Part shown: piece after piece, positions 3,344 to 61,236 of the stretch
Layout of the letters: each line of letters starts with the position of its first letter
Position numbering within the stretch: the first letter of the stretch is position 1
Assembly: GCF_054482595.1 (NCBI RefSeq)
Contig: NZ_CM137008.1
Strand: one strand, 5' to 3'
DNA: 64,000 nucleotides
Made by a program: the position numbers and the translations under genes
Notes under the pieces: generated by a model
Told to the model about the DNA's origin: nothing
What the model saw: the letters and a program-made list of their open reading frames with translations, nothing else
Databases searched by the model: none

Positions 3344-4387
3344 ATGCGCTATCGCATTTTCCTTCTCTTTTTTTTCGCTTTGTTGCCGACGTCTTTGGTG
3401 TGGGCGGCACCAGCGCAACGGGCGTTTTCCGACTGGCAGGTCACCTGTAATAACCAAAACTTCTGCGTGGCGCGTAATACGGGCGATCATAATGGACTGG
3501 TGATGACCCTGAGCCGCAGCGCCGGGGCGCATACCGATGCCGTTTTACGTATTGAGCGCGGCGGGTTGAAGTCGCCGGATGCGTCTGAAGGGGAGATAGC
3601 GCCACGGCTGCTGTTAGATGGTGAGCCGTTGGCGTTAAGTGGTGACAAGTGGCGGATTTCACCATGGTTATTAGTAACCGATGATACGGCAACCATCACC
3701 GAGTTTTTGCAGATGATTCAGGAAGGGAAGGCGATCACCTTACGCGACGGCAATCAGACCATTTCTCTGAGTGGCTTAAAAGCGGCGTTGTTGTTTATTG
3801 ATGCTCAGCAAAAGCGCGTTGGCAGTGAAACCGCGTGGATCAAGAAAGGGGACGAACCGCCGCTCAGCGTACCGCCCGCGCCTGCGCTGAAAGAGGTCGT
3901 GGTGGTTAACCCAACGCCGACGCCACTCTCACTCGAAGAACGCAACGATTTGCTGGATTATGGAAACTGGCGGATGAATGGTCTGCGCTGCTCGCTTGAT
4001 CCATTGCGTCGTGAGGTGAATGTCACTGCGCTGACTGATGATAAAGCGCTGATGATGATTAGCTGTGAGGCAGGGGCCTATAACACCATTGATTTGGCAT
4101 GGATTGTGTCGCGTAAAAAGCCACTAGCCTCGCGTCCGGTTCGGTTGCGTTTGCCGTTCAACAACGGTCAGGAGACGAATGAACTGGAACTGATGAACGC
4201 AACATTTGATGAGAAATCGCGTGAGCTGGTGACCTTAGCGAAAGGGCGCGGATTAAGCGATTGTGGCATTCAGGCGCGCTGGCGCTTTGACGGTCAGCGT
4301 TTTCGCCTGGTGCGTTACGCCGCAGAACCGACCTGCGATAACTGGCATGGGCCAGATGCCTGGCCCACGTTGTGGATCACCCGTTAA
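3344..4387 (+). CDS. ypfG: Uncharacterised periplasmic protein YpfG (DUF1176), signal peptide
   Basis: 347-aa ORF with N-terminal hydrophobic signal sequence (FLLFFFALLPTSLVWAAP); conserved synteny between nudK and tktB. Confidence 0.85.
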   Translation: MRYRIFLLFFFALLPTSLVWAAPAQRAFSDWQVTCNNQNFCVARNTGDHNGLVMTLSRSAGAHTDAVLRIERGGLKSPDASEGEIAPRLLLDGEPLALSGDKWRISPWLLVTDDTATITEFLQMIQEGKAITLRDGNQTISLSGLKAALLFIDAQQKRVGSETAWIKKGDEPPLSVPPAPALKEVVVVNPTPTPLSLEERNDLLDYGNWRMNGLRCSLDPLRREVNVTALTDDKALMMISCEAGAYNTIDLAWIVSRKKPLASRPVRLRLPFNNGQETNELELMNATFDEKSRELVTLAKGRGLSDCGIQARWRFDGQRFRLVRYAAEPTCDNWHGPDAWPTLWITR

Positions 4388-4404
4388 ACAAAATGGCGGG
4401 ACAT

Positions 4405-4474
4405 GTAGGCCGGATAAGACGCGTCAGCGTCGCATCCGGCAATCAGCATCCGGCAATCAGCATCCGGCAATCAC
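4405..4474. repeat. REP (repetitive extragenic palindrome) followed by three tandem copies of a 14-bp unit (catccggcaatcag) at 4433-4474
   Basis: gtaggccggataagacgcgtcagcgtcgcatccggc is a REP consensus; tandem units directly visible; located between convergent ypfG and tktB. Confidence 0.6.
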
Positions 4475-37198: not shown

Positions 37199-38073
37199 TG
37201 GCGGAAGTTACCCAATTGAAGCGTTATGACGCGCGCCCGATTAACTGGGGCAAATGGTTTCTGATTGGCATCGGGATGCTGGTATCGGCGTTCATCCTGC
37301 TGGTGCCGATGATTTACATCTTCGTGCAGGCATTCAGCAAGGGGCTGATGCCGGTTTTACAGAATCTGGCCGATCCGGACATGCTGCACGCGATTTGGCT
37401 GACGGTGATGATCGCGCTGATTGCCGTACCGGTAAACCTGGTGTTCGGCATTCTGCTGGCCTGGCTGGTGACGCGCTTTAACTTCCCTGGACGCCAGTTA
37501 CTGCTGACGCTACTGGACATTCCGTTTGCCGTATCGCCGGTGGTTGCCGGTCTGGTGTATCTGCTGTTCTACGGCTCTAACGGCCCGCTGGGCGGCTGGC
37601 TGGATGAACATAATCTGCAAATTATGTTCTCCTGGCCGGGAATGGTGCTGGTCACCATCTTTGTGACGTGTCCGTTTGTGGTGCGCGAGCTGGTGCCGGT
37701 GATGTTAAGCCAGGGCAGCCAGGAAGACGAAGCGGCGATTTTGCTTGGCGCGTCTGGCTGGCAGATGTTTCGCCGCGTCACATTGCCGAACATTCGCTGG
37801 GCGCTGCTTTATGGCGTGGTGTTGACCAACGCCCGCGCAATTGGCGAGTTTGGCGCGGTGTCGGTGGTTTCCGGCTCGATTCGCGGCGAAACCCTGTCGC
37901 TGCCGTTACAGATTGAATTGCTGGAGCAGGACTACAACACCGTCGGCTCCTTTACCGCTGCGGCGCTGTTAACGCTGATGGCGATTATCACCCTGTTTTT
38001 AAAAAGTATGTTGCAGTGGCGCCTGGAGAATCAGGAAAAACGCGCACAGCAGGAGGAACATCATGAGCATTGA
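37198..38073 (+). CDS. cysW: Sulfate/thiosulfate ABC transporter permease CysW
   Basis: 291 aa; TAATG overlap with the cysU stop. Confidence 0.95.
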
Positions 38074-39160
38074 GATTGCCAATATTAAGAAGTCGTTTGG
38101 TCGCACCCAGGTGCTGAACGATATCTCACTGGATATTCCTTCAGGTCAGATGGTCGCGTTGCTGGGGCCGTCCGGTTCCGGGAAAACCACGCTGCTGCGC
38201 ATTATCGCTGGGCTGGAGCATCAAACCAGCGGGCATATTCGCTTCCACGGCACCGACGTGAGCCGCCTGCACGCACGTGATCGTAAAGTCGGTTTCGTGT
38301 TCCAGCATTACGCGCTGTTCCGCCATATGACGGTGTTCGACAATATCGCTTTTGGCCTGACGGTGCTGCCGCGTCGCGAGCGCCCGAATGCCGCAGCCAT
38401 CAAAGCGAAAGTGACAAAATTGCTGGAAATGGTGCAGCTTGCCCATCTGGCGGATCGTTATCCGGCGCAGCTTTCCGGCGGCCAGAAACAGCGTGTGGCG
38501 CTGGCGCGCGCGCTGGCTGTGGAACCGCAAATTCTGCTGCTTGATGAACCGTTTGGCGCGTTGGATGCGCAGGTGCGTAAAGAGCTGCGTCGCTGGCTGC
38601 GTCAACTCCATGAAGAGCTGAAATTCACCAGCGTGTTCGTGACCCATGACCAGGAAGAAGCGACCGAAGTAGCTGATCGTGTAGTGGTGATGAGCCAGGG
38701 CAATATCGAGCAGGCTGATGCGCCGGACCAGGTATGGCGCGAACCAGCGACCCGTTTTGTACTCGAATTTATGGGCGAAGTGAACCGCCTGCAGGGAACC
38801 ATTCGCGGCGGGCAGTTCCATGTTGGCGCACATCGCTGGCCGCTGGGCTACACACCTGCGTATCAGGGGCCGGTGGATCTCTTCCTGCGCCCGTGGGAAG
38901 TGGATATCAGCCGCCGTACCAGTCTCGATTCGCCGCTGCCGGTACAGGTACTGGAAGCCAGCCCGAAAGGTCACTACACCCAATTAGTGGTGCAGCCGCT
39001 GGGGTGGTACAACGAACCGCTGACGGTCGTGATGCATGGCGACGATGCCCCGCAGCGTGGCGAGCGTTTATTCGTTGGTCTGCAACATGCGCGGCTGTAT
39101 AACGGCGACGAGCGTATCGAAACCCGAGATGAGGAACTTGCTCTCGCACAAAGCGCCTGA
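38063..39160 (+). CDS. cysA: Sulfate/thiosulfate ABC transporter ATP-binding protein CysA
   Basis: 365 aa; Walker [13 protein letters not shown] signature LSGGQKQR; 11-nt overlap with cysW. Confidence 0.95.
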
Positions 39161-39181
39161 TAGGTTGAGTGAATGTTAAAC

Positions 39182-39214
39182 GCCCGGAGGCGCTTCCCGC
39201 GATCCGGGCTTTTT
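39182..39214 (+). terminator. Terminator-like hairpin between cysA and cysM
   Basis: cccgga-N14-tccggg followed by CTTTTT. Confidence 0.45.
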
Positions 39215-39234
39215 AATGGCAAGGTTTGTAACCT

Positions 39235-39270
39235 GTAGGCCTGATAAGACGCGCAAGCGTCGCATCAGGC
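39235..39270. repeat. REP element between cysA and cysM
   Basis: gtaggcctgataagacgcgcaagcgtcgcatcaggc. Confidence 0.55.
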
Positions 39271-39293
39271 AACACCACGTATGGACAGAGATC

Positions 39294-40205
39294 GTGAGTA
39301 CATTAGAACAAACAATAGGCAATACGCCTCTGGTGAAGTTGCAGCGAATGGGGCCGAATAACGGCAGTGAAGTGTGGTTAAAACTGGAAGGCAATAACCC
39401 GGCCGGTTCGGTGAAAGATCGTGCGGCGCTTTCGATGATCGTCGAGGCGGAAAAGCGCGGGGAAATTAAACCGGGTGATGTGTTAATCGAAGCCACCAGT
39501 GGTAACACCGGCATTGCGCTGGCAATGATTGCCGCGCTTAAAGGCTATCGCATGAAATTGCTGATGCCCGACAACATGAGCCAGGAACGCCGTGCGGCGA
39601 TGCGTGCTTATGGTGCGGAACTGATTCTTGTCACCAAAGAGCAGGGCATGGAAGGTGCGCGCGATCTGGCGCTGGAGATGGCGAATCGTGGCGAAGGAAA
39701 GCTGCTCGATCAGTTCAATAATCCCGATAACCCTTATGCGCATTACACCACCACCGGGCCGGAAATCTGGCAGCAAACCGGCGGGCGCATCACTCATTTT
39801 GTCTCCAGCATGGGGACGACCGGCACTATCACCGGCGTTTCACGCTTTATGCGCGAACAATCCAAACCGGTAACGATTGTCGGCCTACAGCCGGAAGAGG
39901 GCAGCAGCATTCCCGGCATTCGCCGCTGGCCTGCGGAGTATATGCCGGGGATTTTCAACGCTTCGCTGGTGGATGAGGTGCTGGATATTCATCAGCGCGA
40001 TGCGGAAAACACCATGCGCGAACTGGCGGTGCGGGAAGGAATATTCTGTGGCGTCAGCTCCGGCGGCGCGGTTGCCGGAGCACTGCGGGTGGCAAAAGCT
40101 AACCCTGACGCGGTGGTGGTGGCGATCATCTGCGATCGTGGCGATCGCTACCTTTCTACCGGGGTGTTTGGGGAAGAGCATTTTAGCCAGGGGGCGGGGA
40201 TTTAA
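39294..40205 (+). CDS. cysM: Cysteine synthase B (O-acetylserine sulfhydrylase B)
   Basis: 303 aa from GTG 39294 (V/MSTLEQTIGNTPLVKL...); PLP-lysine region SVKDR; the track ORF start at 39216 runs through the REP and is not credible. Confidence 0.9.
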   Translation: MSTLEQTIGNTPLVKLQRMGPNNGSEVWLKLEGNNPAGSVKDRAALSMIVEAEKRGEIKPGDVLIEATSGNTGIALAMIAALKGYRMKLLMPDNMSQERRAAMRAYGAELILVTKEQGMEGARDLALEMANRGEGKLLDQFNNPDNPYAHYTTTGPEIWQQTGGRITHFVSSMGTTGTITGVSRFMREQSKPVTIVGLQPEEGSSIPGIRRWPAEYMPGIFNASLVDEVLDIHQRDAENTMRELAVREGIFCGVSSGGAVAGALRVAKANPDAVVVAIICDRGDRYLSTGVFGEEHFSQGAGI

Positions 40206-40207
40206 GA

Positions 40208-40576
40208 TTATTGCGCAGGCACTGTTTTATCCGTCTGCGCAATTAACGCATGTAAAAAAGGCTGTGCATTCTCATCGCTCTTACCGGGCATCTTCACGAT
40301 ATACGGCTTCCCGGTAATCGATGATGACGAAGCAACCTTATCAATAAACTGCTCGGCAGTGTTAATGCGGTTACGGGTATTGCCGAGCTTCAGACGCAGA
40401 TGAGAAACCGCTTCATCGCAGGTATGTTCATCACCGTTGCGCACAAATATCAAATCCTTTTTCTGTGCTAATCCCTCCAGCATGGCGTTGATGCGGGCTT
40501 CTTCATGGGCAGTTAACTTCGCGTAAGCGGGGAGTGTCATTAGTAGTGTAATGACCAGACAAATGATTTTCTTCAT
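40208..40576 (-). CDS. yfeK: Small secreted protein YfeK (signal peptide)
   Basis: 122 aa, [19 protein letters not shown] signal sequence; divergent from pdxK; stop is 2 bp from the cysM stop. Confidence 0.75.
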
Positions 40577-40601
40577 TGAATTACCTTATCCTTGTTTTGT
40601 G

Positions 40602-40667
<66 letters not shown>

Positions 40668-40680
40668 GAGAAAAAATTAA

Positions 40681-41532
40681 ATGAGTAGTTTGTTGTTGTT
40701 TAACGATAAGAGCAGGGCACTGCAGGCGGATATCGTCGCCGTGCAGTCGCAGGTAGTGTACGGCAGCGTAGGCAACAGCATTGCGGTGCCTGCTATCAAA
40801 CAGAACGGTCTGAATGTCTTTGCCGTGCCGACGGTATTGCTGAGCAATACGCCGCATTATGACACTTTCTACGGTGGTGCGATTCCGGACGAATGGTTTA
40901 GCGGCTATTTGCGTGCGCTTCAGGAGCGTGATGCGCTGCGCCAACTTCGAGCTGTAACCACGGGCTATATGGGAACGGCATCGCAAATCAAAATCCTTGC
41001 CGAGTGGCTGACTGCGCTACGCAAAGACCATCCTGACCTATTGATCATGGTCGATCCGGTGATTGGCGATATTGATAGCGGAATTTATGTCAAACCTGAC
41101 CTTCCCGAGGCGTATCGACAATATTTACTGCCACTAGCGCAGGGAATTACCCCCAATATCTTTGAGCTGGAAATCCTGACCGGTAAAAATTGCCGCGATC
41201 TCGACAGTGCCATTGCTGCCGCAAAAAGTCTGCTTTCAGACACATTAAAATGGGTGGTGATTACCAGCGCCTCCGGTAATGAAGAAAATCAGGAGATGCA
41301 GGTGGTGGTGGTCAGTGCCGACAGCGTGAATGTCATTTCCCATTCACGGGTAAAAACCGACCTTAAAGGGACTGGCGACCTGTTTTGTGCTCAGCTCATC
41401 AGTGGCTTGCTGAAAGGGAAGGCGTTAACCGATGCAGTGCACCGAGCGGGGTTGCGCGTACTGGAAGTGATGCGCTACACCCAGCAGCATGAGAGCGATG
41501 AATTGATTTTGCCGCCGCTGGCGGAAGCATAA
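40681..41532 (+). CDS. pdxK: Pyridoxal/pyridoxine/pyridoxamine kinase
   Basis: 283 aa; ribokinase-like PdxK family. Confidence 0.9.
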
Positions 41533-41560
41533 AAAAATGGCGCCGATGGGCGCCATTTTT
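41531..41560. terminator. Bidirectional rho-independent terminator between convergent pdxK and crr
   Basis: AAAAAA-atggcgcc-gatg-ggcgccat-TTTT. Confidence 0.65.
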
Positions 41561-41574
41561 CACTGCGGCAAGAA

Positions 41575-42084
41575 TTACTTCTTGATGCGGATAACCGGGG
41601 TTTCACCCACGGTTACGCTACCGGACAGTTTGATCAGTTCTTTGATTTCGTCCATGTTGGAGATAACAACCGGAGTCAGGGTAGACTTGGCTTTCTCTTC
41701 CAGCAGCGGCAGATCAAATTCAATGACAGTATCGCCAACTTTCACGCGCTGACCTTCTTCAGCAATACGCTTGAAGCCTTCGCCTTTCAGTTCAACGGTG
41801 TCGATACCGAAGTGGACGAACAGTTCAACGCCGCTATCAGATTCGATAGAGAATGCGTGGTTGGTTTCAAAGATTTTACCAATGGTGCCGTCTACAGGCG
41901 CGACCATTTTGTTACCCGTTGGTTTGATAGCAATACCATCACCAACGATTTTTTCCGCAAAAACGACATCCGGCACGTCTTCGATATTGACGATCTCGCC
42001 AGAGAGCGGAGCAATGATCTCAATAGTTCCGGTATCCTTCTTGTCGTCGGAAACCAGAGATTTCAGTTTATCGAACAAACCCAT
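41575..42084 (-). CDS. crr: PTS glucose-specific EIIA component (EIIA-Glc)
   Basis: 169 aa, [39 protein letters not shown]... Confidence 0.97.
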
Positions 42085-42124
42085 GATCTTCTCCTAAGCA
42101 GTAAATTGGGCCGCATCTCGTGGA

Positions 42125-43852
42125 TTAGCAGATTGTTTTTTCTTCAATGAACTTGTTAACCAGCGTCATTAACTCGTCCGTTGTCGGTTGAGCAAGAGCC
42201 TGCTCTGCTAACACCTTCGCATCTTCGAAGTTCGTGTTACGGATAATCTTCTTAATGCGCGGGATAGAAATGGCGCTCATAGAGAATTCGTCCAGACCCA
42301 TCCCCAGCAACAGAAGTGTAGCACGTTCATCGCCAGCAAGCTCACCACACATGCCAGTCCATTTGCCTTCAGCATGAGAAGCATCAATAACTTGCTTGAT
42401 CAAGTTCAGCACGGACGGTGACATTGGCTGGTAAAGGTGTGAAATCATATCATTACCACGGTCAACTGCCAGAGTGTACTGCGTTAAATCATTGGTGCCG
42501 ATACTAAAGAAATCAACTTCTTTGGCTAAATGACGTGCAATTGTTGCGGCAGCCGGTGTTTCCACCATTACGCCGATTTCAATTGACTCGTCAAACGCTT
42601 TACCTTCGTCGCGCAGTTCCTGTTTGTAGATTTCGATCTCTTTGCGCAGTGCACGCACTTCTTCAACAGAGATGATCATCGGGAACATAATGCGCAATTT
42701 ACCGAAAGCCGAGGCACGCAGGATAGCGCGGAGCTGATCGCGCAGGATCTCTTTACGATCCATCGCGATACGGATAGCGCGCCAGCCGAGGAACGGGTTC
42801 TCTTCTTTCGGGAAGTTCATGTATGGCAGCTCTTTGTCGCCGCCGATGTCCATGGTACGAACGATAACCGCCTGCGAGCCACACGCTTCAGCCACTGCTT
42901 TGTAAGCAGCAAACTGTTCTTCTTCAGTGGGCAGCGCGTCGCGGTCCATGAACAGGAACTCAGTACGATACAGACCAACGCCTTCAGCGCCGTTACGCTC
43001 TGCACCTTCAACGTCACGAACCGTACCAATGTTAGCGCATACTTCTACCTGGTGACCGTCCAGCGTAATAGCTGGCAGATCTTTCAGTTTAGCAAGCTCT
43101 GCTTTTTCAGAAGCCACTTGCTCCTGAACAGCGCGCATTTTATCAATAACTTCGTTGGTTGGATTGACGTAAACCTGATTATTTACGGCATCCAGAATCA
43201 GATAGTCGTCATTTTTCACCTGAGAGGTGACGCTACCGGTACCCACGATAGCAGGCAGTTCCAGAGAACGCGCCATGATAGAGGTGTGGGAAGTACGGCC
43301 ACCCGCGTCGGTGATGAAACCCAGCACCTTCTTCAGGTTCAGCTGTGCGGTTTCGGACGGCGTCAGGTCAGCGGCAACCAGAATGACTTCATCCTGAATG
43401 GCGCTCAGGTCGATAATCTTCAGGCCCAGGATGTTGCGCAGCAGGCGCTTACCGATATCACGTACGTCAGCCGCACGTTCTTTCAGGTATTCATCATCCA
43501 GCTCTTCCAGGGCAGAAGCCTGACCTTCGATAACTTCATGAGCAGCTGCGTCAGCTGTCATGTGTTTATCTTTAATCAGGGCTATGATTTCCTGCTCCAG
43601 CTCCTCATCTTCGAGCAGCATAATATGCCCTTCAAAGATGGCTTCTTTTTCTTCACCGAACGTTTCACCAGCTTTCGTTTTGATCGTTTCCAGCTGGGCT
43701 GATGCCTTGGCACGACCGCTCAGAAAACGTTCAACTTCCTGATCAACCTGGTCGGCAGAAATTTTTTTCCGGTCAATGACAATTTCGTCTTCTTTCAGAA
43801 GCAGAGCTTTACCGAAAGCGATACCCGGGGATGCTAAAATGCCTGAAATCAT
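42125..43852 (-). CDS. ptsI: PTS Enzyme I (phosphoenolpyruvate-protein phosphotransferase)
   Basis: 575 aa, [19 protein letters not shown]... Confidence 0.97.

Positions 43853-61124: not shown

Positions 61125-61236
<112 letters not shown>

Follow-up and report, generated by a model that had tools for sequence, protein, structure and literature searches.

The yfeS-less cysM/yfeK junction as the common and probably ancestral allele in Escherichia coli

The stretch of DNA analysed here (64 kb, hereafter the window) carries cysM and yfeK in a tight 3'-to-3' arrangement that lacks the yfeS gene known from this position in E. coli K-12. It is the common, and probably the ancestral, 'empty-site' allele of this junction. 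Presence/absence polymorphism at cysM/yfeK is in itself already known and matters little; in practical terms, K-12 should not be taken as the default for this locus.

Architecture of the cysM/yfeK junction

Direct reading of the plus strand at positions 40196-40222 gives CGGGGATT TAA GA TTA TTGCGCAGG, the letters upstream of the cysM stop codon being GGGGATT (Table 1). That the two genes converge at a distance of 2 bp, as stated in a preliminary description of this DNA, agrees with the ORF list and with the RefSeq annotation of E. coli XH990, a human urine isolate that is 100% identical over 1.2 kb and in which cysM and yfeK are called alike, likewise with a spacing of 2 bp. For cysM we adopted the GTG start of RefSeq; the program-made ORF list begins farther upstream, at an ATG at 39216. 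The gene is the final member of the cysPUWAM cluster, and its identity is supported by 98.4% nucleotide identity to K-12 cysM over 912 bp and by its syntenic position directly downstream of cysA. YfeK matches Pfam PF17263 (E=1.1e-31, 109 bits, cut-off 27) and NCBIfam NF007646 (278 bits versus a cut-off of 171, residues 1-122 of 122). Its C-terminus reads ...DKTVPAQ-stop, as compared to ...DKTVPAEGN-stop in the K-12 protein of 124 aa.

Across the window locus, the gene order is that of K-12 with the sole exception of yfeS. The preliminary description had given the K-12 order as pdxK-yfeK-yfeS-cysM, which proved correct for the locus of MG1655-pvir, our K-12 reference (locus L001). It had also allowed that K-12 might show the same 2-bp junction, and this is not the case. 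The absence of yfeS that it had noted at the junction extends to all 64 kb: a tblastn search of the window with K-12 YfeS yielded no relative (best E=1.6), and a blastn search with the extra K-12 segment returned just two unrelated REP copies, at 61146-61180 and 4404-4441. Both copies resemble a REP of the K-12 cysM-yfeS spacer.

Table 1 Features of the cysM/yfeK locus and of its counterparts in other genomes. Positions refer to the window unless a locus (L number) is named.
Feature	Location	Strand	Description	Basis
cysA	38063-39160	+		ORF list
cysM	39294-40205	+	cysteine synthase B, 303 aa, GTG start	ORF list and RefSeq of identical XH990
cysM stop codon	40203-40205	+	TAA	direct reading
Spacer between convergent stops	40206-40207		GA, 2 bp; empty site of the K-12-type REP pair and yfeS	direct reading, K-12 comparison
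yfeK stop codon	40208-40210	-	TTA on the plus strand, reverse complement of TAA	direct reading
yfeK	40208-40576	-	122 aa, DUF5329 / YfeK family, signal-peptide-like N-terminal segment	ORF list, profiles
Inverted repeat, left arm	40210-40218		ATTGCGCAG, perfect 9-bp repeat with a 16-nt loop	
Inverted repeat, right arm	40235-40243		CTGCGCAAT	
Putative sigma-E-type promoter of yfeK	40610-40637	-	GAAACTT-N16-TCAAA, ends 33 nt before the ATG	
pdxK	40681-41532	+	pyridoxal/pyridoxine/pyridoxamine kinase, divergent from yfeK	ORF list and XH990 RefSeq
crr	41575-42084	-		ORF list
ptsI	42125-43852	-		ORF list
P. faecalis junction			TAA-GT-TTA (2 bp), then TTGCGCAGGCAC...; short type as in E. coli	
Enterobacteriaceae UBA5654 junction			1-bp gap	
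Escherichia sp. E1V33 junction	L011 1417-1428		12-bp cysM/yfeK overlap; yfeK 123 aa, ...TVPSNP-stop; cysM stop TGA	
C. amalonaticus and Superficieibacter sp. junctions			gaps of about 30-40 bp	
E. albertii NBRC 107761 cargo	L017 4331-6149		1.84 kb, 34% GC, two ORFs co-oriented with cysM	
SnoaL/DUF4440 gene, Klebsiella and Superficieibacter electus			131-140 aa, between yfeK and cysM	
SnoaL/DUF4440-like gene positions	L032/L033 (Klebsiella) 3398-3793; L015 4398-4805; L020 4473-4895; L029 2481-2888			
Salmonella enterica cargo	L031 3376-3726		116-aa ORF, no family match, and ~320 bp non-coding, between yfeK and cysM	

Distribution of the two alleles within E. coli

We searched 5,426 complete E. 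coli genomes for the short allele with a 97-bp query across the junction, accepting contiguous matches of at least 80% coverage. The short junction was found in 4,036 genomes and K-12 yfeS DNA in 1,387 (26%, a count rather than a population frequency, because K-12 laboratory derivatives and clinical isolates are over-represented among the genomes). K-12 thus has the less common form, which is the outcome of the check on yfeS across E. coli that the preliminary description had suggested. Among the yfeS-matching records, 1,223 showed an identity of at least 99% and 165 one of 95-99%. The two classes total 5,423 of the 5,426 genomes; there are essentially two alleles at this locus, with the yfeS-less one in the majority.

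The short junction was uniform in every yfeS-less genome sampled, including O157:H7 strain 2159, LF82, O157:H16 and the GTDB representative of E. coli, and the four yfeS-positive E. coli loci that were sampled all had the long allele with identical boundaries, two of them differing by 16 bp in the length of the REP region. As a presence/absence polymorphism, the yfeS-less junction is ordinary, and RefSeq annotation already shows it. A literature search on yfeK and the cysM junction found no relevant description.

These counts bear on the earlier suggestion of a strain-specific indel. An indel relative to K-12 does exist, but it is not specific to this strain. A deletion private to this one genome, or an artefact of its assembly, might be entertained given that just 13 records match the 1.2-kb region of the window at 99% identity or more, which points to a sparsely sampled lineage. 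However, the identical junction recurs in the 4,036 independently assembled complete genomes, from many lineages and hosts, and the RefSeq annotation agrees, leaving such an explanation with a negligible probability.

In O157:H7 strain 2159, yfeK is a pseudogene (L003 709-1076), in which a 1-bp deletion in an A6/T6 run (window 40255-40260) shifts the frame to ...NAQPFYMR-stop; the start codon is GTG in place of ATG. Two further O157:H7-like records match at a length of 1,200 rather than 1,201, and the frameshift may be lineage-wide in O157:H7. Moreover, IS150 lies within yfeK in one yfeS-positive strain and IS1A within yfeS in another (L010 ECCTRSRTH03 1584-2953; H41 LR-03). These insertions suggest that yfeK and yfeS are not under strong selection in those two strains.

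Comparison with the long allele of K-12

The corresponding K-12 locus (b2418-b2421 region, with yfeS as b2420) shares the flanking genes, their order and their orientation at 97-99% nucleotide identity. There, cysM is followed by a 188-bp spacer containing two REP elements, by yfeS (735 bp, 244 aa), by a 32-bp spacer and by yfeK (375 bp). Measured between fixed anchors, the interval spans 77 bp in the window as opposed to 1,036 bp in K-12. K-12 therefore differs by 959 extra bases, comprising the REP pair, yfeS and the 32-bp spacer, and by a YfeK of 124 rather than 122 aa.

Both borders of the K-12 segment carry the 8-bp direct repeat GGATTAAT (L001 2007 and 2959, period 952 bp), which is the only 8-mer common to the two boundary regions. 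At the exact boundaries of the segment, this repeat has the appearance of the target-site duplication of a transposable element; a direct repeat this short is equally compatible with illegitimate recombination. We found no terminal inverted repeats in the segment, its ends agreeing at 14 of 40 positions in register, and rejected transposon-like ends on this basis. The segment also contains no mobility gene: its sole gene, yfeS, encodes a WGR domain and no transposase domain.

The difference between the alleles is not a clean indel. A deletion between the GGATTAAT copies predicts the sequence TAAGGATTAATTTCCTTCCGCAGG, a loss of 952 bp and a YfeK that still ends in PAEGN-stop. The window instead reads TAAGATTATTGCGCAGG, is shorter by 959 bp and encodes the tail PAQ-stop, so that the last codons of yfeK differ as well.

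Insertion of yfeS as the likely direction of change

Polarity is not fixed by sequence alone, and the GGATTAAT repeat would also look like a deletion substrate. Judging from the lines of evidence below, we regard it as likely that the short allele is ancestral and that yfeS represents an insertion in the K-12-type lineage. The GC content of yfeS is 39.2%, compared with 56.5% for cysM, 46.4% for yfeK and 52.2% for pdxK (a range of 46-59% is also quoted for the neighbours). Apart from the enteric copies, its nearest named relatives, which are 45-58% identical, occur in Paenibacillus, Lysinibacillus, Clostridium, Dysgonomonas and Bacteroidota.

Some genomes of Pseudocitrobacter hold yfeS in the same position and with GGATTAAT-type boundaries (the MAG locus L013 as well as L029/L030, taken from 14 contigs, an NCBI assembly among them). 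When K-12 is compared with the yfeS-positive Pseudocitrobacter, nucleotide identity amounts to 95-96% for yfeS, 90-91% for cysM and 80-85% for yfeK, and identity at third codon positions to 0.90, 0.76 and 0.58, respectively. Because yfeS is more similar between the genera than the genes that flank it, the cassette would be younger than the split of its hosts and would therefore have moved laterally. No recombination tract reaching from the cassette into the flanks was detected between K-12 and Pseudocitrobacter; identity is at background by the cassette edges.

A yfeK scan of a genome collection did not bring up the closest sister species, E. fergusonii, E. marmotae and E. ruysiae. E. albertii shows no bare junction because a different insert is present there. 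Tight cysM/yfeK junctions are nonetheless found in several genera (Table 1), and that of P. faecalis is of the same short type as in E. coli. Over the ~70 nt of the P. faecalis junction that correspond to window 40193-40262 (L014), there are 1-2 differences from E. coli; yfeK overall is ~87% identical. An identity peak at the E. coli/P. faecalis junction (92-98%, ~40100-40340) was considered as evidence of exchange and rejected, since similar peaks occur in cysM.

In the reverse scenario, the long yfeS allele would be ancestral in E. coli, and the short allele would have arisen through one deletion between the GGATTAAT repeats before spreading to most lineages. This would explain why the sole shared 8-mer sits exactly at both boundaries of the K-12 segment and why the short junction, with its GATTAT, still resembles GGATTAAT, and it would accommodate a long allele with identical boundaries in a second genus, Pseudocitrobacter. 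However, further changes would be needed to arrive at the observed TAAGATTATTGCGCAGG from the predicted TAAGGATTAATTTCCTTCCGCAGG, and the low GC content of yfeS, its relatives in Firmicutes and Bacteroidota and its excess similarity across genera all speak for a late arrival. The short junction shared with P. faecalis and the tight junctions of other genera argue in the same direction. So do the yfeS-less genomes sampled, which include LF82 and O157:H7; these belong to phylogroups B2 and E, respectively, both of which branch outside group A of K-12. Taken together, we judge an ancestral long allele to be quite improbable.

On the preferred reading of an insertion, a foreign segment of ~0.95 kb with yfeS as a solitary, promoterless WGR-domain gene would have landed at the junction and created the K-12-type allele. 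The event would have left GGATTAAT at both ends and rewritten the final codons of yfeK, and the REP pair would now accompany the inserted yfeS segment. Since then, the cassette may have moved between Escherichia and Pseudocitrobacter, presumably spreading by homologous recombination through its flanks; within E. coli it segregates. The strain of the window may never have had the cassette, or its lineage may have gained the empty allele by recombination.

Sigma-E control of yfeK and the properties of YfeS

Where K-12 has its yfeK promoter, the window contains a putative promoter resembling the sigma-E motif GGAACTT-N16-TCAAA (Table 1), and the 104-bp spacer between yfeK and pdxK differs from that of K-12 by one base. 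In earlier work, yfeK was listed among the sigma-E promoters (PMC3326320) and found to be induced by envelope stress, as are yfeK and yfeS jointly in K-12 (PMC6850105), where the two genes are described as one operon that is transcribed from the sigma-E promoter of yfeK (PMC11502571). Because the motif is intact and yfeS is absent, yfeK, a gene for a periplasmic protein, would constitute a single-gene sigma-E unit in the strain of the window. In K-12, the insertion would have placed yfeS second, after yfeK, in a transcript driven by sigma-E and would thereby have put a foreign gene under sigma-E control.

K-12 YfeS is recognisable by its WGR domain (E=6e-18). In a confident structural model (pLDDT 95.7), this domain takes up residues 1-62 and is joined by a C-terminal domain made up entirely of helices; solved structural relatives were obtained for the WGR domain only, namely 2ra8 and the WGR domains of PARP1/2/3. 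The sole NCBIfam match of YfeS, well under the cut-off, was to the WGR portion of an unrelated family of 685 aa. We also considered yfeS as an anti-phage defence gene and rejected this, as PADLOC returned no family for YfeS, YfeK or the two E. albertii ORFs at E<=0.01. In the searchable literature, boric-acid sensitivity is the sole YfeS phenotype: a K-12 yfeS deletion mutant is sensitive to boric acid, the MIC rising from 45 to 65 mM upon partial complementation as compared to 100 mM in the wild type (PMC11502571). Since yfeS is accessory, K-12 phenotypes of this kind are not transferable to about three quarters of the sequenced E. coli.

Outside the enterics, homologs of YfeS are solitary genes with no conserved gene partner. 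The Paenibacillus homolog is located among small Imm10/DUF2199/DUF2750 genes. In Dysgonomonas sp. 25, a homolog of 54% identity (L028 4001-4732) lies within an apparent trp operon, flanked by an MFS transporter gene and trpC/trpF/trpA, and provides a further example of a yfeS-type gene inserted alone into an operon.

An inverted repeat at the 3' end of yfeK

The preliminary description saw room at the junction neither for another gene nor for a terminator. There is indeed no intergenic space, but the 3' end of yfeK itself contains a perfect 9-bp inverted repeat (Table 1). The repeat starts on the final base of the yfeK stop and spans the last 11 yfeK codons, and its left arm is made of bases specific to the short allele. 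The predicted hairpin has a folding energy of about -16 to -18 kcal/mol, with z=-0.14 on the plus strand and z=-2.2 on the minus strand, where 5 of 200 shuffled sequences fold as well. All nine short-form loci examined, including that of P. faecalis, contain it. In eight of them the arms are unchanged, while the ninth has one A>G arm change that keeps a G-U pair in the plus-strand RNA; SNPs among the short forms lie in the hairpin loop and downstream.

It could be asked whether the short allele is kept because of this hairpin. In such a case, the element at 40210-40243 (TTGCG together with the conserved CTGCGCAAT) would act as a bidirectional terminator or 3'-end stabiliser embedded in coding sequence, and the 2-bp spacing would itself be functional. 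The perfect stem that begins at the yfeK stop codon, the minus-strand fold and the constancy of the arms, in which the lone change preserves pairing, would be in keeping with this idea, as would the long form of K-12, which is devoid of the left arm and has the REP pair instead. However, both arms are coding (IAQ and PAQ-stop), and their conservation therefore proves nothing and may be at the protein level. Furthermore, the 9-bp stem is followed by no U-tract on either strand, the plus-strand fold is unremarkable, and the tight junctions of Escherichia sp. E1V33 and UBA5654 are without the hairpin. A scan for intrinsic terminators gave none at 40190-40260, the sole match within 39800-40750 being an unrelated 5-bp stem at 40348-40360 on the minus strand, and a canonical terminator or promoter at the junction was rejected as the scan found none. 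An Rfam E-value search of 38500-42500 identified no family at the junction and only a partial REP/naRNA4 match upstream of cysM, at 39239-39271. On balance, we consider a functional hairpin as the reason for the short allele to be unlikely. The Rfam match itself denotes a REP element on the minus strand of the cysA-cysM spacer, which at 37.9 bits stays below the gathering score of 59.5.

Convergent genes that abut or overlap and use a common bidirectional terminator are a known phenomenon, and flanking A/U tracts are the defining feature of bidirectional intrinsic terminators. The window junction is similar to the former in that the stops are 2 bp apart with a hairpin adjoining, and differs from the latter in that the hairpin has no flanking A/U tracts. 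Overlaps proper are seen in Escherichia sp. E1V33 and in Klebsiella, where a SnoaL gene and the cysM stop overlap over 4 bp. A further comparison is offered by the REP/BIME elements that occur where genes converge: the K-12 REP pair after cysM folds strongly (z=-3.7), whereas the window junction has none and REP copies are located elsewhere in the window, as in the cysA-cysM spacer.

As to how transcription ends here, we infer each step of the following account. Because there is no terminator at the junction, cysM transcripts probably run into antisense yfeK. Such read-through would yield untranslated antisense yfeK RNA that may be ended by Rho and/or the coding-embedded hairpin. Conversely, sigma-E-driven yfeK transcripts would either stop at the hairpin or continue as antisense RNA into the 3' end of cysM.

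The junction as a possible recurrent slot

Insertion hotspots for accessory genes between conserved core genes are a general pan-genome concept in enterobacterial genomes, and typical hotspots house multi-gene islands and prophages. The cysM/yfeK junction resembles them in being one core-gene junction that is empty or, depending on the lineage, filled with unrelated cargo: yfeS, a SnoaL-like gene, a 116-aa ORF or a two-ORF block (Table 1). In contrast to typical hotspots, the cargo consists of one or two genes and comes without integrase, tRNA or IS. As a minor point, this is a small core-gene junction repeatedly struck by single-gene insertions in different genera.

In E. albertii, the first cargo ORF encodes 280 aa without a Pfam match and the second a lipoprotein-like protein of 175 aa, whose N-terminus is lipobox-like and whose match to DKNYY is sub-threshold. 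This block has its own terminator-like GC-rich hairpin and T-run after yfeK. The YfeK tails following ...DKTV vary with the arrangement (PAQ, PAEGN, ELKNK, VAESQ, PDEDK and PSNP), as would be expected from events that each cut into the terminal codons.

We tentatively propose a broader reading, which we hold to be plausible though far from secure. According to this, the junction would be a recurrent slot in Enterobacteriaceae, at which solitary promoterless foreign genes become wired into the sigma-E regulon by read-through from yfeK. The yfeS cassette, with its identical breakpoints, would have been swapped between Escherichia and Pseudocitrobacter, both of which hold filled and empty alleles, and the hairpin of the empty allele would serve both transcripts.

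In Pseudocitrobacter, a similar SnoaL-like gene is found on the opposite side of yfeK, between pdxK and yfeK, and this gene seems to have changed sides of yfeK. Salmonella likewise contains additional genes between pdxK and yfeK, encoding a GntR-aminotransferase and a GATase.
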